64,000 nt of DNA from Dehalococcoidia bacterium (GCA_963663945.1 OY760687.1:2639918-2703917); one strand, 5' to 3'. Positions 1 to 12,474 are shown, counted from the first letter of the stretch. Numbers and translations: made by a program. Notes: generated by a model not told the origin, from the sequence alone.

Positions 1-510
1 GTCGCCGCCGTCGGGCAGACCCTTCGGGTGTCGGGCAAGCATACATCGGACCGATATGCGGTGGTTGACCAGTGGGATTGGGCTGGCGGCGAGGTGGGGC
101 ACTGCGCCGGTCCCTACTGGCTGGTCGGAGACGAGGTCACCGCCTTGACGCCGAATGTGTCGGCGTTTGCGTCGGACGATGGGATCTTCTTCCCGCGTTT
201 GAATCACCAACGCGGGCCCATAGGACACCCGCTGGCGGGTGTGGAAGGACGGCTGGCGCTCCACGGTCGGTGCCTGCTGCTGGAGACGCCATTTCCTCCC
301 GGAGCCTACCTCGTGATCTGGCCTCCGGGTTTCCACGCCCATAGAATGGGGGCCGACATGCTCGTGCGAAACGGCGGCGGCAGCGTCATCGCCCAGATTG
401 GCGACGATGTCAGTTTGGGTGGGGTCGGTCATGAAGGGGAGCATTACTCGGACGAGTGTCCAGGAGCGTCCTTCTGGGCATACACGGTGGAGCGCGCTAC
501 CGCAAGGTAG
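1..510 (+). CDS. Hypothetical protein, 5'-partial, probably built from a repeated small domain
   Basis: Frame is open from base 1 (VAAVGQTLRVSG...) to TAG at 508-510. The edge motif AAVGQTLRVSG resembles the C-terminal IAQIGDDVSLGG, suggesting a tandem domain. Confidence 0.55.
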   Translation, partial: VAAVGQTLRVSGKHTSDRYAVVDQWDWAGGEVGHCAGPYWLVGDEVTALTPNVSAFASDDGIFFPRLNHQRGPIGHPLAGVEGRLALHGRCLLLETPFPPGAYLVIWPPGFHAHRMGADMLVRNGGGSVIAQIGDDVSLGGVGHEGEHYSDECPGASFWAYTVERATAR

Positions 511-704
511 AAACTGATCAGGTGATGGCGCCCGCGGCGGTCCGATCTTCAGGAATACCAACCACCTGGAGAATGGCGACGTTAGCCCCTGCGCGTTGAC
601 GTGGCGCGATGTCTCCAGCGAGATCGCGTGCCGCCTCACTTTCCGGATCGAGGTTGCCGGTTGACCCTTGCCAGTGGTGGGGTTGGAGCCTGGGAACGTC
701 AGCC

Positions 705-1138
705 CTAGAGTTCGTCCAATACCACCACCAGCAGACCTGGGACGCGCCGGAAGGCGCTGTCGTTGGTGACGAACAGGGTGCACCGTTCCTGGATGCTCGT
801 CGCCGCATGCAGCGCGTCCGGCGCGCGCAGGTCCAGGGCGGCGCGTATTTGGCGGCGGATTCCCAGAGCGCGCCCGTGGTCGGCGCCAGCCGCACCTCGC
901 TGGAGTTGAGCAGATCACGGAAGAGCCTTTGGAGCGCTATGTCGCCATCACGCAGGGGCTTGACCAAGGTTTCTACGATGTACAACTCGCTGGTGACGAT
1001 CGCGAACTGGCTGGTTTGGGCCCATCGCCATACGGGTTCCACCAACGCCCGGTAGGGCTCGATCCGTTCCACACTGTAGATGAAGCCGCAAGCGTCCATG
1101 TAGATCGGACCGGGGTCAGGCAGCGTTATGGCCCCCAC
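705..1138 (-). pseudogene. vapC: PIN-domain (VapC-like) toxin with a 1-nt frameshift near 850-860
   Basis: N-terminal YMDACGFIY...SELYIVETLV is PIN-like. After LWESAA the PIN C-terminus (IRAALDLRAPDALHAATSIQERCTLFVTNDSAFRRVPGLLVVVLDEL*) continues in another frame to a TAG at 705-707. Confidence 0.85.
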
Positions 1139-1359
1139 GAGTTCCGCTCGGAGTCCAGGTGGTCGGCGACGTCCTGTGCGGTCCCGAAAAGGCGGTGCCC
1201 GGGCGCTTCGGCCAGTATGCCAACCGCCGACCTTCGTGGGGCGGGAGAGGACGCCGTCACGAGTATGTCGACGGTTTCGCCGTCGGCCAGGTCCTAGTCC
1301 ACGATCACGATCTTGCCGCCTGGCAATACGGTTGTTTGCAGGTGCAGCGGTCTTTGCAT
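1126..1359 (-). pseudogene. Putative antitoxin of the PIN toxin, with an in-frame amber stop at codon 22
   Basis: MQRPLHLQTTVLPGGKIVIVD*DLADGETVDILVT...HRLFGTAQDVADHLDSERNSWGP*. TAG at 1294-1296; its 3' end overlaps the toxin GTG start, as in type II TA operons. Confidence 0.7.
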
Positions 1360-1524
1360 GGGTCTCGACTTCCGTGGGGCGGTGTGCCGGACGCCCGGAG
1401 CGTCAATGGAGCGATGGTTCCATCTTCGCAAGGTGAGGCTGGGCGGTCAAAATGCAGATATCGACCAACTCGCCGAAGCGCCGGCGGTCAGCCGTCTATG
1501 GTCCACGAGACGAGATTACGCCTG

Positions 1525-1555
1525 ACCGTTGCCCGAGTAACTCCCGGGCAACGGT
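1525..1555. promoter_or_regulatory. Perfect 11-bp inverted repeat (operator or hairpin) between the divergent TA and STAS genes
   Basis: ACCGTTGCCCG-N9-CGGGCAACGGT. Confidence 0.35.
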
Positions 1556-1792
1556 ACCCCCGGGCCGGTTCCAGGTTTCATCCCGGCAAGCCCGGCGCTG
1601 GCCGTAAGGGGATCGTCTACCGCACACTCAACCGACGCCCTTCCCTTTACCGGAATCGACCCGTTGGTGGCCAAGATTCGGTTACCGGGCCAATGACCGG
1701 GTTCCGACCAACTCTCCCTCACCCGCGCGCTGACCCCCACTTGCGGACCGGCCTGTCTTGCGGTACGTAACGTTGTGCGAAGGGGTAGCGCT

Positions 1793-2128
1793 ATGGTGAT
1801 GCAAGTCGGTCAAGAGGATTTCAGCAGGGTGATCGGGGCCCCCCGCCGGCTGTACGGCGTGAACGCTCAGGTCTTTCACGATCAGTTGGAGGCAGCGGTC
1901 GGTTCAGTCCATAAGGTTGTGGTCATCGACATGTCGGATCTGATCTACATCAGCAACGCGGGCCTGAGGGTGATCATTCAGGCTGCAAAGCAGCTGCAGG
2001 CTCACGACGCCAGGTTGGTCCTCTGCGCCCTGTCGGATGAAGTCCAGGCTTTGTTTGAGGCCAGCAGCGTGGACCGGGTGATTGACATACGCCCGTCGCT
2101 GGACGTGGCGGTAGCTGCCAGGCGTTGA
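1793..2128 (+). CDS. STAS-domain protein (anti-sigma factor antagonist-like)
   Basis: About 111 aa with VVIDMSDLIYISNAGLRVII...LVLCALSDEVQALFE, the STAS/SpoIIAA signature. Confidence 0.85.
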   Translation: MVMQVGQEDFSRVIGAPRRLYGVNAQVFHDQLEAAVGSVHKVVVIDMSDLIYISNAGLRVIIQAAKQLQAHDARLVLCALSDEVQALFEASSVDRVIDIRPSLDVAVAARR

Positions 2129-2183
2129 TGACGGGCTTCATCCCCGCGCGGTAAAGTAACGGGCAGCTACAGTCATACCTGGC

Positions 2184-3032
2184 TCAGCCGGCCTCTATCC
2201 AGATCCGGCAGTGGTCGCTGGGACCCCACCCCTCCACCTCATTCAGCGCCTTCACCCGAACCCTTTCGTGAAACCCGCGCGAGACAAACACGTGGTCAAT
2301 CTGCACCCGGGCTCCATCCGGCGTGTTCGTCGGCTTGTGGTAGTAGGTCGGCACATCCAGAGAGTCCTCCGTCAGGTGCGTCGGTATGGGATCGGCGCGC
2401 CGGCCATCGGGATACTGCGGTCCCATGTAATCCAAGCCTAGGGCTTGCATCCGATCTAGGATGGTCTGGGCCCGGTGATTAAACTGGTCCGAACTCTGTA
2501 ACGACACATTCAGGTCTCCAGCCGCCAGTATCCGGTGACCAGCCGGGCAGTCATAATACCCGATAAATGCGGACAGATCCGAGATGATGCGGTGGGCCGA
2601 TGCGTCAGGGTAAATCCAATCCCCTTCGGCAGTGGGGTGTGGGCTGAGCCAGCGGGCGTACATTGAGACGGCAATGAAGGACTCACCTCCTACCACTGGA
2701 GTGACCCGGGCGACGTCCATGGTGCCTATTCCGCTCACCGCCATCTCGTGCGTCCGCTCCGGAGCCACCCAAGTCGGCCCGATCTGCCGGAACCATTCCA
2801 CGTTTACCCGGTCGGAGAGCTTCACCACCATAGGCCACCGATCGTAGTTCGGCACACCTGTGGTGGGGTCGCGCCCGAGCCACGATTCGTAGGGGCTGAG
2901 TTCTACCCGGCTTGCCACATCGTCGGGAACCGTGCCCACCTCCTGCAATAGGGCGATGTCAGCCCCCATATCCACCAGATCCCGCCACGGTTGGTGCATG
3001 GTGGCGATGTTCCAGCTCACCACATTGATCAT
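2184..3032 (-). CDS. Endonuclease/exonuclease/phosphatase (EEP) family protein
   Basis: Intact SWNIA, LQE, AGDLN, QIDHVF and PSDH motifs; RBS AGGGAG precedes the ATG at 3032. Confidence 0.9.
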   Translation of the reverse strand: MINVVSWNIATMHQPWRDLVDMGADIALLQEVGTVPDDVASRVELSPYESWLGRDPTTGVPNYDRWPMVVKLSDRVNVEWFRQIGPTWVAPERTHEMAVSGIGTMDVARVTPVVGGESFIAVSMYARWLSPHPTAEGDWIYPDASAHRIISDLSAFIGYYDCPAGHRILAAGDLNVSLQSSDQFNHRAQTILDRMQALGLDYMGPQYPDGRRADPIPTHLTEDSLDVPTYYHKPTNTPDGARVQIDHVFVSRGFHERVRVKALNEVEGWGPSDHCRIWIEAG

Positions 3033-3272
3033 GAAACACTCCCTATCGTCGTTCAATTCGACCGTTTGCTACCAGACCCTCATCTGCATCGTGTCAGCGG
3101 GGTCTCTCCACTCTGTCAGATCCACAAGTCGTTCCTCGCTGGGCGATGTGCCTCGTTCAACATATGGGAATTGCCCCGGCTCCGTAGCGAGTTCCGAGAA
3201 CAGCGTTGGTCAGGGCGCCATTGGTGTCTGTGTCGCCGCCCGAACTCACCAATACCATCTTGTTGCCAGCCG

Positions 3273-3575
3273 TCAGGACTGAGCCTGCGATGATTGACCC
3301 CCATTCCCGGGGCTCTCCCTCGCCTCGTAACGACCGACGATACTCGTCACATGAGGGTAGAGTGGCAGACGCTCTTTGACGTCCCACCAGCGGAAGGACT
3401 CCAGCTCCCGGCCATTGATCCTGGGATCGCCGGCGAAGACCGGCGCCCCCTTGTGGTCGTTGAAACTCCCCTCGTTCGTGTAATTGAAGAGCCGTTCGGC
3501 ACGGTAGGCTTTCATCCCCAACTCTTCGTCCAACTCGCAGCAGGCAGACGTCAACGCCGCCTCACCCAGTTCCAT
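3273..3575 (-). pseudogene. N-terminally truncated NUDIX hydrolase; its ATG lies inside a CRISPR repeat
   Basis: MELGEAALTSACCELDEELG is the second half of a Nudix box (GX5EX7REUXEEXG, with RE degenerate); the usual N-terminal strands are absent. Confidence 0.65.
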
Positions 3576-3657
3576 CCCCGCGCGTGCGGGGGAACCGGGT
3601 CAACACCGGAACCGCCTCAACCGAAGTGCGGTCTGTCCCCGCGCGTGCGGGGGAACC
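3568..3657 (-). CRISPR. Orphan type I-E-like mini-array (repeat-spacer-repeat)
   Basis: Plus-strand repeats AGTTCCATCCCCGCGCGTGCGGGGGAACC (3568-3596) and CGGTCTGTCCCCGCGCGTGCGGGGGAACC (3629-3657), 29 nt each. The 32-nt spacer is GGGTCAACACCGGAACCGCCTCAACCGAAGTG. The 61-nt period and CCCCGC..GCGGGG hairpin are typical of I-E. No cas genes in the window. Confidence 0.85.
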
Positions 3658-3866
3658 CTTCTATGTTCCTATGATGCTGCGGTCTGTTGGTTGTGGTTCG
3701 TAAAAACTTGCGCCGCGGCCCTTGCCGCCGGCGGCAAATGCGCTCTTCAAGTATGCAAACCGAAGACGGCAGGCCCATGGCCTGGTCTCTCCAGCGAACC
3801 GCAGTGTCGGTTCGGTACCGGCCTTGTCATGGGCGGCTTAGCCTAGCCGCAGGCAGTGGGCGGCTG

Positions 3867-4052
3867 CTAGGTTCGATGGTGCATTCGGGGGTTCGCCTTT
3901 CGGAGTATTTGTTGTGGGTATATACACATCACTACTGACATGACTGACAGGTACGATGTGTTACCGGGAAGTACAGCGCAGTGTGCCTTTGCGAACCTAG
4001 CGTGCCCGCGCCACGGGCGTTACATTTGTGCGATAGCGCTGGGAGTTTGATA
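3867..4052 (+). promoter_or_regulatory. Conserved non-coding element type 1, copy A (134-nt core closed by CTAGGTTCG/CGAACCTAG)
   Basis: Colinear homology to 7634-7821. First 19 nt are identical; ACACATCACT, AACCTAGCG, GGGCGTTACATT and TTGATA blocks are shared. Lies upstream of a sensor kinase. Confidence 0.7.
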
Positions 4053-4119
4053 ATCTTTCCCGACGGGTCGGCGCCTGGCCCGGGCCGGCGCGCGAACCCC
4101 CAACCTTGATCATCGAATT

Positions 4120-5355
4120 TTGCGGCGTCCCAAATTGAGCCATTACCAGCGATTGCAACGGTTCGTCTGGGTCGAACCCGACGTGGTGCGCCCGGCGGTG
4201 CGGGTCACGGTCTGGGGACGCTGGTTCCTCCTGCTCATTGGCGTGGCTCACCTCGCGTACCCTCTGGAGTTTTCCTACCCCCATGACTTGGAGCACGCGG
4301 TTCTGCATGTTCCGGTAGCCGCGCTGAACGGCCTGGTCCACCACCGGTTGCTCACCAACCGGACGGTCAACTGGGGCTGGGCGCTGGGGTTAAGCGCCAT
4401 GGACTTCGCCTTCACCACGTCCCATATCCTGATCCACCAGGGCGGATTTGATAACTACACCTTCCTCTACTTGTATCCCGCCCTGGGCGCTTTCGTGGTC
4501 ATCTTTTCCTCGTTCTCCCTCGTTCTGGCGTGGACCACGACCGTCGCGGTCGCCTACGCCCTGGTGTGCCTGCTGGTGGGGCCCGGCCTGGACATGGCCT
4601 CCGGCGACGTGAAGGAGCTGGGAGCCAGGCTGGCGACGATGTATCTCATGACCGTTGCCGTCAGCCTCATCGTCCGGTTTGAGCGCGCCCAGCGGCAGGC
4701 GGCGATGGAGGGGGAGCGACGGATGCAGCAGGAACGCATCGATCTGTCGCAGTCCATCCACGACACCGTGGCCCAGACCGCCTACATGATCGGCCTGGGG
4801 ATTGACGGCGCCATCAGTCTGGCCGGGGATTCGAACCCCAGGTTGGTCGAGCGCCTGGCCGCGACGTCAGAGCTGTCGAAATCGGCAATGTGGGAACTCA
4901 GGCGACCCATCGACATGGGCCGGCTATTCGAGGGGCAGCAGCTCGGACCGGTGTTGCGGTCCCACGCCGCGACCTTCTCGGCCATCACCTCGGTTCCAAC
5001 CGAGATGGCTCAGTCTGGGGTGGAGCCGCCCCTGGCGCCAGAGGCGCAGGCCGCTCTCTTCGCCATCGCCCACAACGCCCTGACCAACGCCTTTCTCCAC
5101 GCACAAGCGAAACGGGTTGAGGTCAGGCTCGACTTCGGGGCCGACGCCGTGCGCCTGTCCGTCTCCGACGACGGGGTGGGACTGCCCAGCGACTACGCCG
5201 AGCGGGGTCGCGGTTTCGCCGGTATGGAGAGGGACGCCCGGGGGCTGGGCGGCAGACTCATCGTGGAGACGGGCGAGCCGGATGTCGGGACCACCGTCAC
5301 CTGCGTGGCTCCCTACGCGACAGTTCGAACAGGAGACGATGATGGCAGCGACTGA
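4120..5355 (+). CDS. Membrane sensor histidine kinase, NarX/DesK-like (HisKA_3 + HATPase_c)
   Basis: About 6 hydrophobic segments, H-box SQSIHDTVAQ, N-box IAHNALTNAFLH, G-box SDDGVG. Start codon uncertain. Confidence 0.9.
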   Translation: MRRPKLSHYQRLQRFVWVEPDVVRPAVRVTVWGRWFLLLIGVAHLAYPLEFSYPHDLEHAVLHVPVAALNGLVHHRLLTNRTVNWGWALGLSAMDFAFTTSHILIHQGGFDNYTFLYLYPALGAFVVIFSSFSLVLAWTTTVAVAYALVCLLVGPGLDMASGDVKELGARLATMYLMTVAVSLIVRFERAQRQAAMEGERRMQQERIDLSQSIHDTVAQTAYMIGLGIDGAISLAGDSNPRLVERLAATSELSKSAMWELRRPIDMGRLFEGQQLGPVLRSHAATFSAITSVPTEMAQSGVEPPLAPEAQAALFAIAHNALTNAFLHAQAKRVEVRLDFGADAVRLSVSDDGVGLPSDYAERGRGFAGMERDARGLGGRLIVETGEPDVGTTVTCVAPYATVRTGDDDGSD

Positions 5356-5992
5356 TGTGATCCGGGTATTGGTGGTGGACGATCATCCCGTCACTAGGCG
5401 GGGGTTGCGCGACACCCTGGCGGACGTGGAAGGCTTCGAGGTTGCGGGACAGGCGGCGGATGGGGTTGAGGCCGTTACCGTGGCGCAGGAAACGCGGCCC
5501 GACGTCATCGTCATGGACCTGTTCATGCCCCACAAGGACGGAGTGGAAGCCTGCCGGGAGATCACGGAGCTGCTGCCCGACACCAGGGTGCTGATGCTCA
5601 CCGCCTCTGCAGCGGAAGACGACGTGATCCGGGCCGTGGCCGCCGGCGCCACGGGGTTCGTTCAGAAGTTCACGGGAAGCGATGAGTTGATCCACGCGGT
5701 GCGGCAGGTGGCGGCGGGCAATCTGATGATCCCGGGAGACGCGGTGAGACGGGCGTTCCGGCTGTTGGACGAGGGCGCGGCGAAACACGCTGCGGATTTG
5801 CTGTCGGCAAGGGAGCGGGAGGTGCTGACCCGGTTCGCGACGGGAAAGGCGTATGCGGAGATAGCCGGAGACATGGGCATCAGCAAGGTGACGGTGCGCA
5901 ACGCCATCTACCGGGTTCAGAACAAGCTCGGGCTTGAGTCCCCGCAGGAGATCGTGGTGTGGGCGGTCCGCAACGGTCTGCTGGAGGAGTAA
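5339..5992 (+). CDS. NarL/FixJ-family response regulator (REC + LuxR HTH)
   Basis: VLVVDDHP, VIVMD, FVQK, LSAREREVL...KVTVRNAIYRVQNKLG; overlaps the kinase stop; RBS AGGAG. Confidence 0.92.
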   Translation: MMAATDVIRVLVVDDHPVTRRGLRDTLADVEGFEVAGQAADGVEAVTVAQETRPDVIVMDLFMPHKDGVEACREITELLPDTRVLMLTASAAEDDVIRAVAAGATGFVQKFTGSDELIHAVRQVAAGNLMIPGDAVRRAFRLLDEGAAKHAADLLSAREREVLTRFATGKAYAEIAGDMGISKVTVRNAIYRVQNKLGLESPQEIVVWAVRNGLLEE

Positions 5993-6032
5993 CGGATTCG
6001 GCACGGCTGGCAGTGGCTCGGATCGACGATTG

Positions 6033-6314
6033 ATGAGTGAGCATGCAGGAGGCGGCGAACCTGCCTTGTTGTTGCTACCGCGATGTTCGGCATCGACGCG
6101 ATTCTTTGCGGTGGCGTCGCTCGTGGTGTCAAAGGTGTGTCTATTGACAGCCTGCTGGGGTGAGGCGCCGTCAGGAAACTCCGGTCCCGGTGGAGAAGCC
6201 CCGCCTCGCGTCACTGCCGAGGCGGCAGACGAGCAGCCAGATACGCTTGACGCACCGCATAGCCGAGCGCGCGAGATCCTCGCCGCAGGCTTTCGGCCAT
6301 TGCCGAAGGCCTGA
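6033..6314 (+). CDS. Possible small or decayed lipoprotein
   Basis: Hydrophobic stretch ending in LLTAC followed by a G/E/P-rich linker; short and may be a remnant. Confidence 0.3.
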   Translation: MSEHAGGGEPALLLLPRCSASTRFFAVASLVVSKVCLLTACWGEAPSGNSGPGGEAPPRVTAEAADEQPDTLDAPHSRAREILAAGFRPLPKA

Positions 6315-6414
6315 CATTGATCAAGGACGAGGCGGTTCAGTGGCCGGGTGCGTCGATGGGTTGCCCCCAGGAAGGGATGGAGTAGGTTCGGTTGCTTCCC
6401 CGTGGGCGTGTCTA

Positions 6415-7634
6415 GTACTCAGCCAACGTTGGAAAAGCAGGAGTAGAAGCGTTGGAGTTTGGTTCTGGCGTCCTCGGTTCCGAAGCGCCAGTAAATGGGG
6501 ATGCGTGCGGCGTTGCGTCGGGTCTCGTAGGCGGTGATGGCACGTTGCAGGGCGCCAGCGTCAGGGTTTCTCCCTTTGAGACAGGCGCGGCTCAACACAC
6601 TCAACTCAATCTCCGCCATTTTCAGACAGTCGGCGTGCTTGGGGTGTGGTGATACTCGAGACGTTTCACGATGCGTCGGGCTTCGGCCGCAGGGAAGGTC
6701 TCATACAGCGGGGCCATGCGGTGGGTGTTCAGGTTGTCCAGGACCACGGGGATGACGGTGGCGTCGGGGTTGGCCACGTCTGTGAGCCACCGCATCTGGA
6801 GGGCGAAGTCCGCCATGGTGCGCCGCTGGGTGATGGCGATGTGGCTCCAACCAGCCAGTGGTTCTCAGAACAGGAAGAGGTTGCGGTTGCCACCGCGTCG
6901 GTACTCGTAATCCTGACGTCGGGGTCGTGCCGGCTGGGCCGGCAAAGGTTCCCGCACATCGCCCAATAGTTGCGTAGAGGTCTCGTCGAAGCACACCACC
7001 GGCCGGCCGGGGTCGTAGGGCTCGGCATACAGGTCCAGCACGTCCTCCATGGCCGCCACAAACTCCCCGTTCATCTGGGAGATGCACCACCCTCGCTTTT
7101 GACAGGGTTTGAGGACGTTTTTTGAGCCGGAGCCGGACCGTCTCGTGGGACAGGCTCTCCACCACGCCCAACTCCACTACCTGGTCGGCCAGCAACCGCA
7201 GGGTCCAGTGGTCGCGTCCGTCGGGCGCGTCGCTGCACGCCAGGGCAATCAGGCTGGCTTCGCCCCGATCATCCAGCTTGCCATACCGGTTGGCCTGGGG
7301 ATGGTCATCTAGCACACCGTCCAATCCCTCATCGGCGTACCGCCGCTTGGTGCGGAACACCGTGCGTTGCGACGTGTCCAGGGCCGCCGCCAGCTGCGAA
7401 CCGCTCCAGCCCTCATCGGTCTTGACCAGGATACGCGCCCGATTGATTACCCGAGCCGAGTGCTGTCCCCGACGGATCGACCCCTCCAGTTGGCCCCGAT
7501 CTTACTCCGACAACCGTACCGCAAACTTCTCCTGAGCCATGGTTGCCCCACCTCCCGCACCGTTGGTTCCCACTCACGGCAACCACCATGGCCGGTTTCT
7601 TCTTCCATATGCCTGTACAAATTTGACTGAATAC
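6415..7634 (-). mobile_element. IS630-family insertion sequence (decayed)
   Basis: 25-nt terminal inverted repeats GTACTCAGCCAACGTTGGAAAAGCA (6415-6439) and the reverse complement of 7610-7634 (18/25 identical). TA duplicated at 6413-6414 and 7635-7636 within a CTAG target. Confidence 0.9.
6419..7540 (-). pseudogene. IS630 transposase pseudogene
   Basis: MAQEKFAVRLSE* (stop at codon 13). HTH part runs to LRLKK with an AAAAAAC -1 frameshift motif. DDE part: CFDE...LFLF* (internal stop), VLDNLNTH, a further frameshift, then MAEIELSVL. Confidence 0.88.
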
Positions 7635-7821
7635 TAGGTTCGATGGTGCATTTGGCGGGTTCACTTTTTGCATACTTGCTGAACGTAAACACACATCACT
7701 TCGTACTTGATGGACACGTATGGATTGCTACCAGAAAGTAAAACCCAATGTGGTTGCCGAAACCTAGCGCCGCCCGCGACATGGGCGTTACATTCGATGC
7801 GATCGCGCTGGAAGATTGATA
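7634..7821 (+). promoter_or_regulatory. Conserved non-coding element type 1, copy B
   Basis: CTAGGTTCGATGGTGCATT at 7634 and AACCTAG ending 7767 give the same 134-nt span as copy A. Lies upstream of the hybrid kinase. Confidence 0.7.
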
Positions 7822-7879
7822 TTCATGCCGGGAATGTATTTCCCAGAGAATAGCCCCACTCGAGCCTCCTTTATCAGCC

Positions 7880-10276
7880 ATGAGCCAGTCTGAGTCCGAC
7901 CTGCTGAAACAAGAGAACGAGGTGCTGCGTGAACGTCTGGCGCGTTTGAGCGAGGCCAGCCTGCGCATCAACGAGCCTCTGGAGTTCGACGCCGTTCTAC
8001 AGGGAGTTCTGGACGCCGCCAGATCGTTGACCGATGCCTGTTACGGGGTAATGACGTTCCACGACGATGATGGAGAGCTTTCGAACTCCCTGTCGTCGGG
8101 GATGACCGCGGAGGAGGCGAGCGCGGTCTGGCAAATTCTGACGGCGCCCGGGATCTACGAGCGACTGGGCGGGATCGCGGGTCCGGTGCGACATCCCGAC
8201 ATGCTGGGACTGCTGAGCGAGATGGGTGTTCCCGGAATGCGCCTGCCCCTGCCGTCGGGGACAGTCTTCTCCTTCCTGGCGTCGCCATTGCTGCATCGAA
8301 ACCAGCGCCTGGGCAATATCTACCTGGCCGCAAAGCTGAGCCGCCCGGAGTTCACTCGGGAAGACGAGGAGAGCCTGGTGATGTTCACGTCTCAGGCGTC
8401 TCTGGTAATCGCCAACGCCAGGCGCTACCGGGACGAGCAGCGGGTGCGGGGCGACCTGGAGACACTGGTGGACACCGCGCCGGTGGGCGTGGTGGTATTG
8501 GACGCCAGGACGGGGACGCCGGTGTCCTTGAACCGGGAAGCCTCCCGAATCATCGGCCGCCTTCGCAGCTCTGACCAGTCAGTTGCGGAGCTTGCGGAGG
8601 TGATGACCTGGATACGCGCTGACGGTCAGGAGGTCTCGCTCAGGGATTTTCCCATTGCGGATCGACCTAAGGTAGGTGAGACGGTCCGTGCTGAGGAGAT
8701 CATGCTCCAGGTTCCCGACGGCCGCCGGATTACGGTACTGATCAGCGCTACGCCCATGCACTCGGCGGCCGGGGAGGTGGAGTCGATGGTGGTGACCCTC
8801 CAGGACATGACGCCGCTGGAGGAGATGGAGCGGCTGCGAGCGGATTTCCTGGGTATAGTGAGCCACGAATTGCGCACCCCTCTAGCGACCATCAAGGGTT
8901 CCACCACCACATTGCTCAGCGGCGCGTCGGACCTTGATCCCGCCGTGATGGCCCAGTTTCACCGCATCATGGACCAACAGGTTGACCACATGCAGGACCT
9001 GATCGGTGATCTCCTGGACGTGGCCCGCATAGAAGCGGGGGCGTTGTCAGTTGACCCGGCGCCGGTGGACCTGGCGGAGATAGTGGAAGAGGCGCGCAGC
9101 AGGTTCCTAGGGGCCGAGGGAAGCGAACGGCTGAGCATAAAGTTGGATCCGGAACTGCCGCTGGTGATGGCGGACCGCCGGCGCATTGTGCAAGTGCTGG
9201 GCAACCTGTTGACTAACGCGGTGCGGCACTCGCCGGATGGCTCGCCCGTCCGAGTTTCCGCCATACGGGATGTTTTCCACGTGGCGGTTTCAGTCTCCGA
9301 TCAGGGCCGCGGCATCCCTGCCGACATGTTGCCGCTCCTGTTTCGCAAGTTCTCCCAGGTTGACGGCGCAACACGGGACGGGGGTGTCAGCGGATCCGGC
9401 CTGGGCCTGGCGATCTGCAAAGGGATTGTGGAAGCTCACGGGGGCCGCATTTGGGCCGACAGTGAGGGTCGGGGACTCGGAGCGCGGTTCACATTCACCA
9501 TTCCGTCAGCGCAGGGCGCAGAGGATAGCGCGGCGACGGCTCTCGCGGCCCCGGTGCGAGCGCGTGGGCTATCGCGGGACAAGCTGCGGGTTCTGGCGGT
9601 GGACGACGACCCTCAGGCGCTCCGCTACGTTCGCGACGCCATCTCCAAGGCGGGATACGCCCCCGTCGTCACTGGAGACCCCGAAGACGTGCCGCGTCTC
9701 ATGGAGGAGGAGGAGCCGCACCTGGTACTCCTGGACCTCATGCTCCCCGGCAGCGATGGCATCGAGTTGATGACCGGCATCCTCAGGACTGCGGACGTGC
9801 CGGTGATCTTCGTGTCGGTGTACGGCCAGGAGGACGTGGTGGCCCGGGCTTTTGACATGGGGGCATCCGATTACGTGGTCAAGCCCTTCTCACCTACGGA
9901 GCTGGCGGCCAGGATCAGGGCGGCCCTGCGCCGGAGAGCCGGGCCCGATGTAGCTGAGCCTTCCGGCCCCTACGAATTGGGGGACTTGACCATCGATTAC
10001 GCCGGACGCCGAGTGTGGTTGACAGGGAGCCCGGTGGCACTGACGCCCACCGAGTACAGGTTGCTCTACGAGCTTTCGATCCACGCCGGCCGGGTGATGA
10101 CCCACGACCATCTGCTGCAACGGATCTGGGGTCCGGAGAGGATGGGCGAACCGTGGCTGGTCCGGGAGGTGGTGAAGCGGCTGCGAGGCAAGCTGGGTGA
10201 TGTCGCCGCCGACCCGAAGTATATCCTAACCGAGCCCCGGGTCGGCTATCGCATGCCCGCGGGAGACGCGGGATGA
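7880..10276 (+). CDS. Soluble hybrid kinase/regulator: GAF-PAS-HisKA-HATPase_c-REC-OmpR-type winged helix
   Basis: GAF (INEPLEFDAVLQGVLDAARSLT...GNIYL), PAS (VGVVVLDA), H-box SHELRTPL, NLLTNAV, GSGLGLAI, REC (LAVDDD, LVLLD, YVVKPF), C-terminal YILTEPRVGYRM. Confidence 0.92.
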   Translation: MSQSESDLLKQENEVLRERLARLSEASLRINEPLEFDAVLQGVLDAARSLTDACYGVMTFHDDDGELSNSLSSGMTAEEASAVWQILTAPGIYERLGGIAGPVRHPDMLGLLSEMGVPGMRLPLPSGTVFSFLASPLLHRNQRLGNIYLAAKLSRPEFTREDEESLVMFTSQASLVIANARRYRDEQRVRGDLETLVDTAPVGVVVLDARTGTPVSLNREASRIIGRLRSSDQSVAELAEVMTWIRADGQEVSLRDFPIADRPKVGETVRAEEIMLQVPDGRRITVLISATPMHSAAGEVESMVVTLQDMTPLEEMERLRADFLGIVSHELRTPLATIKGSTTTLLSGASDLDPAVMAQFHRIMDQQVDHMQDLIGDLLDVARIEAGALSVDPAPVDLAEIVEEARSRFLGAEGSERLSIKLDPELPLVMADRRRIVQVLGNLLTNAVRHSPDGSPVRVSAIRDVFHVAVSVSDQGRGIPADMLPLLFRKFSQVDGATRDGGVSGSGLGLAICKGIVEAHGGRIWADSEGRGLGARFTFTIPSAQGAEDSAATALAAPVRARGLSRDKLRVLAVDDDPQALRYVRDAISKAGYAPVVTGDPEDVPRLMEEEEPHLVLLDLMLPGSDGIELMTGILRTADVPVIFVSVYGQEDVVARAFDMGASDYVVKPFSPTELAARIRAALRRRAGPDVAEPSGPYELGDLTIDYAGRRVWLTGSPVALTPTEYRLLYELSIHAGRVMTHDHLLQRIWGPERMGEPWLVREVVKRLRGKLGDVAADPKYILTEPRVGYRMPAGDAG

Positions 10277-10390
10277 AAAAGCACGGGGTGACCATGCCGG
10301 ACAGTGAATTGGACTTCGGCATCGGCCCAGATCGCCGCACGGAATGAGGGACACAACACCCGCGCGCCGGGGTTGAGGCTGTGACGTCCC

Positions 10391-11800
10391 TCAATGATCC
10401 AGGGAGAGGCGAATAGTTGCGGTGGCGCCCTGACCAAGCCCGTCGCTGTCCACGGTGATTGTGCCCCCATGGGCTTCCACTATGGTTCTGGTGATGGCGA
10501 GTCCCAGGCCGCTTCCGTTTATCCCACGATTGCGGGACTGGTCGGTCCGGTAGAACCGTTCGAAAACGTGAGGCAGATCGGCGGAGTCGATGCCGATCCC
10601 GTCATCGGCGACCGAGATGACCAGGGCTTCGTCGCCGTCCCGCTCCGCGTGGATCGCAACCTTCCCCCCGGCCTCGGTGCAACGAAGGGCGTTGCTGATA
10701 ATGTTGCCAAGCGCCTGGTTCATCCGCATACGGTCCATGGTAAGGCGAGGGAGTTCACCGGTTACCTGGAGCGATAGTTCAATCTGCCCGGCCAGCGATT
10801 GCGGCTGCCAGCGGGCCACCTCCTCGGTGAGTAACTCGTGGACAGAAATGGTTTCGAGGGCGAGCCTCAACTCACCGTGGTCAGTCTCGGCAAGCCAGTT
10901 CAGGTCGGTAACGAGACCCCGCAGCCGGTCCACCTCCTGGATGATGTGGTCGGAGGCGTCGTCCGGCGTCTGCAGGCCGTCACGCAGTCCTCTGGCCTCC
11001 AGCTGTATCACGCTCAGGGGCGTGTTCAGCTCGTGGGCGACGTCGTTGATCAATCGGCGGCGGAGCTCACGCTGGGTCTCCAGTGCGGCGGTCATCCGGT
11101 TGAAGGCCTCGCTCATCGTGCCCAACTCGTCCGAGGACGTAACCGGAAGGGTGGCAGATTCCCCCTGGGCAATTGCCTGGGAGGCTTCCGTCAGCGCCGT
11201 CACGGGCGCGGTGATGCGTTTGGACAGCCAGACGGCTAGCACAATGGCGACACCGACCGTCAGCGCGCCACCGGTCAGGGTGATGAACAGGAGCGCGTTC
11301 AGGAACCCGTGGGACTCGGTGGACAGGAACTCGCGGTTCACGTCCACGTAGACGTGGCCCACTACCCGATTGGATGCCAGATGGAGCACATCCTCGCGGT
11401 GCCCGCCCAGAGGCGGCGGATCGGATCCGGGCGACAGCTGGGACAGATTGTCCTTCACCACGAGGCCGTCGGCCCCAATTACGACCACCCGCACCTGGTC
11501 GTGTTGACCGCCCTCGGAGTGTTCTCCTTCTGATTCCTCCGACCGTTCCCCCCGTGGAATACTGCCGGAGAGGTACCCCGCCTCCGACAACGTCATGTCC
11601 AACGTCGCCCAGCCGCCGGAATCCGTGTACTCTCTGCTCAGGTTACGGGCCAGCTGGGTCGCCCGGTCTCCGCCCACCTCTTCCACGAACACCCCCAGGC
11701 GGGTCTGCGTCGCGTAGTAGCCCACGCCCACGCTGGTCAATACCGTCAGCAGGACGACGAATACGATCGCCGCCATGATCCGCCAGCGCAGCGACATCAC
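10391..11800 (-). CDS. HAMP-domain sensor histidine kinase (BaeS-like)
   Basis: Two TM helices, HAMP (SSDELGTMSEAFNRM), H-box AHELNTPL, GSGLGLAI; His/Glu-rich extracytoplasmic segment ERSEESEGEHSEGGQHD. Confidence 0.92.
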   Translation of the reverse strand: MMSLRWRIMAAIVFVVLLTVLTSVGVGYYATQTRLGVFVEEVGGDRATQLARNLSREYTDSGGWATLDMTLSEAGYLSGSIPRGERSEESEGEHSEGGQHDQVRVVVIGADGLVVKDNLSQLSPGSDPPPLGGHREDVLHLASNRVVGHVYVDVNREFLSTESHGFLNALLFITLTGGALTVGVAIVLAVWLSKRITAPVTALTEASQAIAQGESATLPVTSSDELGTMSEAFNRMTAALETQRELRRRLINDVAHELNTPLSVIQLEARGLRDGLQTPDDASDHIIQEVDRLRGLVTDLNWLAETDHGELRLALETISVHELLTEEVARWQPQSLAGQIELSLQVTGELPRLTMDRMRMNQALGNIISNALRCTEAGGKVAIHAERDGDEALVISVADDGIGIDSADLPHVFERFYRTDQSRNRGINGSGLGLAITRTIVEAHGGTITVDSDGLGQGATATIRLSLDH

Positions 11801-12474
11801 TCATCCTCCACCACGAGCCTGTAGCCAGCGCCGTAAACGGTCTGGATGGGCTGTCTACCGCCCCGGTTGATCTGGCGACGCAGGCGCGCCACCTGGTTGT
11901 CGATGGCGCGGTCGAAACCTTCGAACTCGTCGTTGAAGGTGAGCGAGATCAGCTGGTCGCGGGTGAGCACCTGGTTGGGGTGGCGCATGAAGGTTGCCAG
12001 CAGTGCAATCTGCGCCTGGCTCAGGGGCACGGGTTCTTCATCGACCGTCACCGTACGGGTGGTCTCGTCCAGCGTGATGTTGCCGCAGGTCAGGACCTGC
12101 TGGACCTTGCCCTTGACGCGGCGCAGCACGGCGTGGGCGCGAGCGATGACCTCGTCCGGGTCGAAGGGCTTGACGATGTAATCGTCGGCTCCGCTGTCCA
12201 GCCCGCTGATGCGCTCGGTGTGGGCTTCCCTGGCGGTCAGCATGATGATGGGAACATCCGACTCCCGCCGCAGGATCCGGCACAACTCCACGCCGTCGAG
12301 GCGGGGCAGCATCAGGTCCAGGATCATCAGGTCAGGTTCCAACTCCCGAGCCAGGTTTAGGCCGGTTTCGCCGTCGTGGGCGACCTCGGCTGAAAACCCG
12401 GCGCGCTCAAAGTAAACCTTGACCCAGTTGGCGATCCGGGCGTCGTCCTCGACTATCAGTACGGTGCCATTCAT
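11797..12474 (-). CDS. OmpR-family response regulator
   Basis: VLIVEDD, LMILD, YIVKPF, IQTVYGAGYRL; RBS GGAGGA before the ATG at 12474; overlaps the kinase start. Confidence 0.93.
   Translation of the reverse strand: MNGTVLIVEDDARIANWVKVYFERAGFSAEVAHDGETGLNLARELEPDLMILDLMLPRLDGVELCRILRRESDVPIIMLTAREAHTERISGLDSGADDYIVKPFDPDEVIARAHAVLRRVKGKVQQVLTCGNITLDETTRTVTVDEEPVPLSQAQIALLATFMRHPNQVLTRDQLISLTFNDEFEGFDRAIDNQVARLRRQINRGGRQPIQTVYGAGYRLVVEDE

Follow-up and report, generated by a model that had tools for sequence, protein, structure and literature searches.

A CRISPR array that runs directly into an open reading frame raises the question of whether its repeats exert some control over the gene or are simply the debris of a rearrangement. 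The case considered here lies in a window of 64,000 nucleotides (the whole stretch of DNA that was analysed), which corresponds to C1:2639918-2703917 in the 3.94-Mb single-contig genome (63% G+C, 99.4% complete) of a Dehalococcoidia bacterium. On the minus strand of this window, two CRISPR repeats separated by one spacer lead into a 100-codon frame that looks like part of a Nudix gene. In our assessment, the feature as a whole is very probably a dead type I-E vestige that was fused by a short-homology deletion to a double-NUDIX pseudogene, in a genome that carries no cas genes.

The array itself can be described with little ambiguity. Repeat 1 (3629-3657, minus strand) is 29 nt long, GGTTCCCCCGCACGCGCGGGGACAGACCG, and departs from the genus consensus (..GGGGATAGACCN) by a single change of T to C, so that it is canonical over 28 of its 29 nt. 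It is followed by a single 32-nt spacer (3597-3628, minus strand; CACTTCGGTTGAGGCGGTTCCGGTGTTGACCC) and then by repeat 2 (3568-3596, minus strand; 29 nt, GGTTCCCCCGCACGCGCGGGGATGGAACT), which is the last repeat and is chimeric: 22 nt (3575-3596) are from the repeat, and positions 3568-3574 (TGGAACT) continue the Nudix gene. The whole repeat-spacer-repeat unit measures 90 nt, and its period of 61 nt (29 + 32) is the same as that of congeneric arrays. An earlier note on this DNA had recognized two 29-nt I-E repeats and a 32-nt spacer, and that description is correct, with matching coordinates and the 61-nt spacing. The 22-nt core that the two repeats share occurs twice in the 64-kb window, at the 61-nt spacing, when 0.00 copies are expected (100 shuffles), and it is the sole direct-repeat family within window positions 2500-4500. 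A hairpin is predicted in the array, the stem of the type I-E repeat being G+C-rich; in the chimeric repeat 2, GGUUCC can pair with GGAACU, and the AUG is then predicted to be buried in an extended hairpin. An Rfam scan of window positions 1-12000 at E <= 1 matched zero families, and therefore no CRISPR-DR model covers the repeat of the window. The 90-nt unit is nonetheless a genuine remnant of a type I-E CRISPR array.

The source of the repeat is apparent from other members of the genus. Of the 24 other genus genomes, 12 have the 22-nt core in arrays of 16 to about 400 copies, five have one to three copies and seven lack it. The core in the window is identical at 22 of 22 nt to the repeats that follow the I-E cas operons of two congeners, G014 and G020. 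The G014 operon is complete, with cas3 (HD + helicase), cse1, cse2, cas7e, cas5e, cas6e, cas1 and cas2 followed by the array; G020 has the same order from cas3 through cas2, and the Cas proteins of the two genomes are 49-90% identical across their aligned parts. In both, the repeat lies on the cas-coding strand after cas2, with the 3' end of the genus consensus reading ..GGGGATAGACC(N). The minus-strand orientation, which had been assigned to the window array by analogy with the E. coli repeat, is therefore right.

The G020 operon contains a second, smaller array between cas5e and cas6e (G020:C1:793640-793786; L057 13640-13786), consisting of one degenerate and two further repeats. Both of the latter end in a private variant, GGGGATGGGCA(C/G), and the ATG of cas6e lies 6 nt past the last repeat. 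It is a candidate for the class of regulatory mini-arrays that Shmakov et al. have described.

None of the accessory parts of an I-E system was found with the window array. A six-frame Pfam search of the whole 3.94-Mb genome detected neither Cas1 nor Cas6e, and tblastn with the eight G014 Cas proteins against the whole genome gave no trace (best E = 0.049); these probes are adequate because they are 49-90% identical to the G020 Cas proteins. The lack of cas genes, observed earlier for the window, thus extends to the entire single-contig genome, which is without the cognate cas genes that a functional I-E system needs. The leader zone of the genus, taken as the 120 nt preceding the first repeat, is well conserved between G014 and G020 (local alignment score 68, versus 8.8 +/- 1.4 for shuffles). 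The first repeat lies only about 30-33 nt past the cas2 stop codon (G014:C39:242372-242401 and G020:C1:795937-795971), and so the conserved "leader" mostly overlaps the 3' end of cas2. At the flank of the window array this genus leader (cas2 3' end plus about 33 nt) scores 9.0, equal to its shuffles, and no leader is recognizable there. No sigma-70-like promoter is predicted in window positions 3000-4200.

What lies upstream of repeat 1 instead is a segmental duplicate. After a gap of six bases (3658-3663, minus strand; TAGAAG), possibly what is left of an earlier spacer or leader, the sequence at 3664-6029 (plus strand) is 92% identical to C1:701551-703962 of the same genome. This 2.4-kb duplicate contains a histidine kinase gene, a LuxR-type response regulator gene and 460 nt of upstream DNA. 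Beginning as it does 6 nt from repeat 1, it shows that the array remnant is bounded on that side by a rearrangement boundary. The far end of the duplicate adjoins a degenerate IS630-like transposase (6.4-7.4 kb), and the region of the window is rich in mobile elements. An element of about 160-190 nt is found upstream of several kinase genes, in this genome and in congeners, at 73-80% identity; it occurs in the window at 3867-4024 and 7633-7821, elsewhere in the same genome at C1:712824-713008 and C1:703562-703749, and in two congeners (G004:C42:177796 and G023:C1:843814).

The genome contains one other repeat-like copy, a solo 30-nt repeat at C1:790264-790293 (L059 4265-4294; GGTTCCCCCGGCACGCGCGGGGATAGACCA), which is a second vestige of the lost I-E system. 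A weak leader-like motif (CCCTTGGNGNAT) lies about 50 nt upstream of this repeat. Its neighbours are a defence patch with AbiEii/AbiEi and HsdM on one side, and a tyrosine integrase, a nucleotidyltransferase and IS21 on the other.

Remnants of this sort are not confined to one genome. Orphan arrays of one to three repeats are present in other congeners, at G006:C8:477136-477279 (L063), G017:C1:2581215-2581358 (L062), G002:C1:2669755-2669836 (L064) and G007:C3:437099 (L061), which indicates that I-E loci decay recurrently in the genus and leave small remnants behind. In the G006 array one spacer sequence occurs twice, the G017 array adjoins an apparent tRNA 3' end, and the G002 array is near a C-terminal fragment of cas3. 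Orphan or degraded arrays left after cas loss are well known from the I-E and I-F loci of Escherichia and Salmonella (Touchon and Rocha 2010, PMC2886076; Bernheim et al. 2019, PMC7145637). Like the array in the window, those are short, of recognizable subtype and without matching cas genes, and they are patchily distributed among close relatives, with repeats and spacers lost by illegitimate recombination. The window differs from them in that its breakpoint is resolved to within a few bases, having fallen inside a conserved coding motif of the neighbouring gene.

That neighbouring gene is now represented by a 100-codon frame (3273-3575, minus strand), which starts with the ATG at 3575-3573 and begins MELGEAALTSACCELDEELGMKAY. 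Searches at the DNA level recovered the intact gene from relatives, where it encodes 267-287 aa with two NUDIX domains; in the orthologue from G004, Pfam reports NUDIX at 2e-34 in two stretches. The second Nudix box of the intact orthologues reads ..KYSLPGGGMEQGEAALTAACRELGEELGMKAY... DNA homology of the frame to this gene spans 3578-3310, and its product aligns to residues ~181-273 of the 287-aa G004 protein at 80% protein identity. The frame is thus akin to the tandem double-NUDIX proteins (PF00293) of this SAR202 genus, and it differs from them in lacking the first NUDIX domain, the N-terminal strands of the second domain and the start of the Nudix box. The other parts of the gene, including its first 180 codons, are nowhere in the genome, and they are not found upstream of the array.

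The frame on its own is a poor NUDIX protein. It has no Pfam NUDIX match at E <= 0.1, its best PDB match is weak (a 157-aa MutT/NUDIX protein at E = 0.32, covering only residues 72-148 of that protein), and it falls short of a full NUDIX domain (PF00293) of about 130 aa. The complete Nudix box, GX5EX7REUXEEXGU, is lacking as well: the frame starts M-E-L-G-E inside the box, the RE of the box has become CE, and the first Gly of the box falls in repeat-derived DNA. The description of this frame as a NUDIX ORF therefore needs correcting: it is the last third (about 90 codons) of a double-NUDIX gene and no NUDIX gene in itself, there being no Pfam match.

The origin of the start codon follows from the same alignment. 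Since the frame aligns to the intact double-NUDIX gene, the ATG with which it opens is an internal Met codon native to that gene (GGGMEQGE; DNA ..SLPGGGMEQGEAAL..), which is present in 8 of 11 orthologues. The earlier note had proposed that the repeat supplies the start codon; the genus consensus reads GGGGATAGACC at that place, and the ATG belongs to the Nudix gene. It remains true, as that note observed, that the ATG opens the frame in the middle of the Nudix box, the ORF (3575-3273) starting inside both the box and the second repeat.

Several features of the remnant argue that it has begun to decay. Among 44 columns that are invariant in the 11 intact orthologues, the remnant has seven private substitutions, in addition to a one-codon deletion; the intact orthologues themselves have 0-1 private substitutions in nine cases, 2 in one and 5 in the most divergent. 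One of the changes (AALTAACRE to AALTSACCE) removes the conserved Arg of the Nudix box, which becomes Cys. Pairwise dN/dS for the remnant is about 0.09, only slightly above that of intact pairs, and this ratio is uninformative because dS is saturated between species. The dN between the remnant and G004 is 0.089, roughly double the 0.045 of an intact orthologue at comparable dS, again with dS saturated, and such an excess is consistent with constraint having been lifted recently. The truncation happened recently when compared with the divergence of the species, and with the frame still open some residual function is formally possible. We judge the 100-codon ORF, from its sequence, to be a probable pseudogene, which most likely yields no working protein. 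Exact-protein look-ups returned no record for the 100-aa ORF, for a 126-aa ORF on the opposite strand or for the kinase.

How repeat and gene came together can be read from the junction. In a blastn comparison, DNA homology to the Nudix gene starts at GGGATGGA and continues for 272 nt at 81% nucleotide identity to G004. The orthologues read ..GGCGG(A/C)GGGATGGA(A/G)CA.., and the window reads ..GCGCGGGGATGGAACT.. at the join. With the sequences aligned and a slash marking the join, repeat 1 of the window is GCACGCGCGGGGA/CAGACCG and the 3' end of the genus consensus repeat is ..GGGGA/TAGACC(N); the window junction is GCACGCGCGGGGA/TGGAACTGGGTGAGG; and the Nudix genes are CATGCGGCGGGA/TGGAACAAGGCGAGG in G015 and CTGGCGGAGGGA/TGGAGCAGGGCGAGG in G004. 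Over the 7 nt past GGGGA, the window matches the Nudix orthologues at 5-6 positions, versus 4 of 7 for the consensus repeat. The repeat and the Nudix box have GGGA(T) exactly in common and are alike at 11 of the 15 nt surrounding it, strict identity at the join being 4-5 nt only. The crossover lies within the common GGGA(T). A common GGGA(T), together with a homology that starts inside the repeat, is what short-homology (illegitimate) recombination leaves. Of the explanations offered earlier, the one that fits is microhomology recombination between the GCGGGGA of the repeat and Gly codons of a Nudix box, in that the homology to the gene begins at GGGATGGA and includes the common tetra- or pentanucleotide.

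Neither GTDB representative genomes nor JGI metagenomes contain the junction pattern, and a check for its recurrence in relatives located it in none of the congeners either. The earlier note had itself remarked that, if relatives were to carry a full NUDIX gene that is deleted here, the junction would amount to a deletion scar only. This is the situation found.

Further along the minus strand, the debris continues. The Nudix homology ends at 3310, and about 50 nt on lies the 3'-terminal fragment of a gene for a Ser/Thr-kinase + ADP-ribosylglycohydrolase protein (3117-3257, minus strand), comprising the last ~45 codons (~140 nt) and ending in a premature stop. In the relative represented by locus L027, the corresponding distance is 4.1 kb. 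The shortening from about 4.1 kb to about 50 nt thus marks a second, internal deletion, by which some 4 kb of the same gene cluster is missing just downstream of the Nudix remnant. The first intact gene downstream of the debris encodes an endonuclease/exonuclease/phosphatase-family (EEP) protein (2184-3056, minus strand). An identical EEP protein is encoded on a Logan contig of independent origin, whose sequence breaks off 15 nt upstream of the gene, and the same species is present in sequencing run ERR3887496.

The cluster from which these fragments come is conserved in relatives and can be seen at L017 (G004:C49) 1401-3854 and L027 6001-11111, where genes for the double-NUDIX protein, a VWA protein, a PP2C phosphatase and an 800-aa Ser/Thr-kinase + ADP-ribosylglycohydrolase are on the same strand. 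In its kinase part the last of these is similar to PD-T4-6 defence kinases, and the NUDIX protein matches the PADLOC candidate PDC-S07. The cluster is also reminiscent of the VWA "ternary" systems (Kaur et al. 2020, PMC7159879). The relatives' cluster is a candidate ADP-ribose-linked defence or conflict system. With the kinase-ADP-ribosylglycohydrolase fragment next to the Nudix remnant, the locus in the window can be described as the remains of a defence-like cluster fused to those of a CRISPR array.

Two further observations concern the double-NUDIX gene and its surroundings in relatives. In G015 the double-NUDIX gene is interrupted by an element of about 885 bp, arms included (L004 (G015:C1) 1813-2697), which has 70-nt terminal inverted repeats, 90% complementary, and looks like a MITE or small non-autonomous transposon. 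In another species, a solo I-E repeat (GGTTCCCCCGCACACGCGGGGATAAAACA; L026/L027 ~1663-1691, minus strand) lies 4.3 kb upstream of the double-NUDIX cluster and adjoins a PIN/antitoxin pair.

No target was found for the spacer. Within its own genome it matches at most 14 nt, at an unrelated site (E = 0.24); there is no match at <=3 mismatches in 53 congeneric genomes, and no more than 10 nt is matched in the cas operons of G014 and G020. Neither the full-length spacer nor its 5' 20-mer is found in IMG/VR, and a 24-mer of the spacer is not found in JGI metagenomes. One IMG/VR contig matches the 3' 20-mer, with 20 of 32 nt in all and only 3 of 12 nt over the PAM-proximal 5' end, and was set aside as a chance match. 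The search for spacer targets among host promoters and viral contigs, advised at the outset, has thus produced none in the genome itself, IMG/VR or JGI metagenomes.

Three kinds of functional short array could nevertheless be imagined here: a crRNA-like gate on the ORF, an anti-cas or decoy array that comes into play on entry of a I-E system into the cell, or an array served by Cas proteins that a mobile element supplies in trans. The abundance of mobile elements in the region would suit a functional array. CreTA-type systems are CRISPR-regulated toxin-antitoxin RNAs. Like the window, these systems and the regulatory mini-arrays and standalone repeats described inside cas loci (Shmakov et al. 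2023, PMC10120712) may have two repeats and one spacer adjoining an ORF; they lie within or beside active cas loci and depend on the effector complex, neither of which exists for the window. Their spacers pair in part with a promoter close by, and the elements recur across related loci; the window spacer has no such match, and its arrangement is not conserved. A regulatory mini-array was rejected accordingly, there being no effector, a best own-genome match of 14 nt and no copy of the spacer in 53 congeners. Short cas-less arrays with anti-cas spacers have been described in E. coli (Touchon and Rocha, PMC2886076), and these need a spacer directed against cas genes; matches of <=10 nt in the G014 and G020 cas operons led to rejection of this possibility too. 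Mini-CRISPR arrays carried by viruses and other mobile elements (Medvedeva et al. 2019, PMC6858448) resemble the window in having one spacer without cas genes of their own; those arrays have a leader, host Cas proteins and spacers against competing viruses, and the window has no leader, no host Cas and no target that was found. The absence of a promoter of the sigma-70 type, and an arrangement that is not conserved in relatives, weigh further against function, and a working mini-array of any of these kinds is in our view highly improbable. In particular, the suggestion that Cas6 cleavage or Cascade binding gates the ORF finds no Cas6e, Cascade, Cas3 or Cas1-2 in the genome, even as fragments, and no leader, target or conservation to go with it.

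The remaining alternatives concern how the junction arose. The last repeat might be a naturally degenerate trailer, with the Nudix gene truncated independently, for example by insertion of a CRISPR-Cas island. Terminal and solo repeats of the genus do often diverge past GGGGAT (..GGGGATGTCGCG in G006, ..GGGGATAATAGA in G036, ..GGGGATAAAACA in L027), the last repeat of the window agrees with the consensus at all but 3 of 29 positions, and the CRISPR-Cas islands of G014 and G020 occupy differing positions in the backbone. The bases past GGGGA are nonetheless closer to the Nudix orthologues than to the repeat, and the Nudix homology extends into the repeat's GGGA, so that we consider a degenerate trailer unlikely; it too would end in a non-functional scar, and only the history would differ. 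Much less likely still is an assembly artefact, in which the repeat-Nudix join would be a chimeric contig join. The junction was found nowhere else in the searches of GTDB, JGI and exact-protein records, and the Logan contig with the EEP gene breaks off at window ~3047, before reaching it. Against this, the genome is one 3.94-Mb contig and the Nudix fragment bears private substitutions of its own; mis-assembly is also made improbable by the fact that array and Nudix gene are both single-copy in the assembly, leaving no second source for a mis-join. Ectopic integration of a spacer by Cas1-Cas2 at a repeat-like site within the Nudix gene, to create a neo-CRISPR, had likewise been put forward, and the Nudix-box DNA does resemble the 3' half of the repeat (11 of 15 nt). 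Such an event would be expected to give two repeats that are both copies of the local Nudix sequence, with the 5' part of the gene upstream, and neither is seen: repeat 1 is canonical and is not a Nudix duplicate, the orthologous Nudix DNA resembles only the last ~15 nt of the repeat and is unlike its first 15 nt, and the 180 N-terminal codons are absent from the genome. This last alternative is rejected as extremely improbable.

The reading that we prefer, a short-homology deletion between array and gene, comprises several events. The lineage has lost its CRISPR-Cas system, leaving a non-functional repeat-spacer-repeat. Illegitimate recombination at a short homology would have joined the repeat (..GCGCGGGGAT/AGACC) to the second Nudix box (..GGCGGGAT/GGAAC..) and taken out the intervening DNA, with the gene's first 180 codons among it. 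Given recombination at the Nudix box, the 100-aa ORF would be a pseudogene tail, still open and beginning at an internal Met. The second deletion accounts for the loss of about 4 kb of the double NUDIX-VWA-PP2C-kinase-ADP-ribosylglycohydrolase cluster, and the leader end of the array would have been replaced by the segmental duplication.

Presumably the repeat and the Nudix gene lay in cis and were joined by a simple deletion. An array directly upstream of the double-NUDIX gene and co-oriented with it is present in no relative. In G020 the array is about 19 kb from the Nudix/EEP pair, array and genes lying within 20-34 kb of one another, in the opposite relative orientation, and the backbone around the pair is syntenic with regions of the window's genome other than this locus; on both counts G020 was rejected as the pre-deletion state. 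CRISPR-Cas islands, moreover, are at different backbone sites in G014 and G020. With no pre-deletion arrangement in relatives and with these differing island sites, three histories are possible, namely a deletion in cis, insertion of an island followed by its loss, or a complex rearrangement involving the kinase duplication.

A more general idea is that, in this sponge-associated SAR202 genus, illegitimate recombination with non-CRISPR DNA repeatedly has its breakpoint in the I-E repeat itself. The vulnerable point would be the G+C-rich hairpin followed by GGGGAT, and the repeat-Nudix chimera would then form part of a broader pattern together with the solo or terminal repeats that diverge right past GGGGAT in G006, G020, G036 and L027. 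We regard this proposal as doubtful and put it forward only tentatively; if it were true, arrays would actively drive the deletion or capture of neighbouring defence genes.

The finding in itself matters little, being an ordinary decay scar of a known kind. It does remove the tempting reading of a CRISPR-gated ORF, and it documents, almost to the base, the erasure of a CRISPR array and a defence-like cluster by short-homology deletions in an uncultured bacterium. It is also one more instance of how patchily I-E systems are gained and lost in the sponge-type SAR202 genus. The intact double NUDIX-VWA-PP2C-kinase-ADP-ribosylglycohydrolase cluster of the relatives, as a candidate defence system, may merit study.
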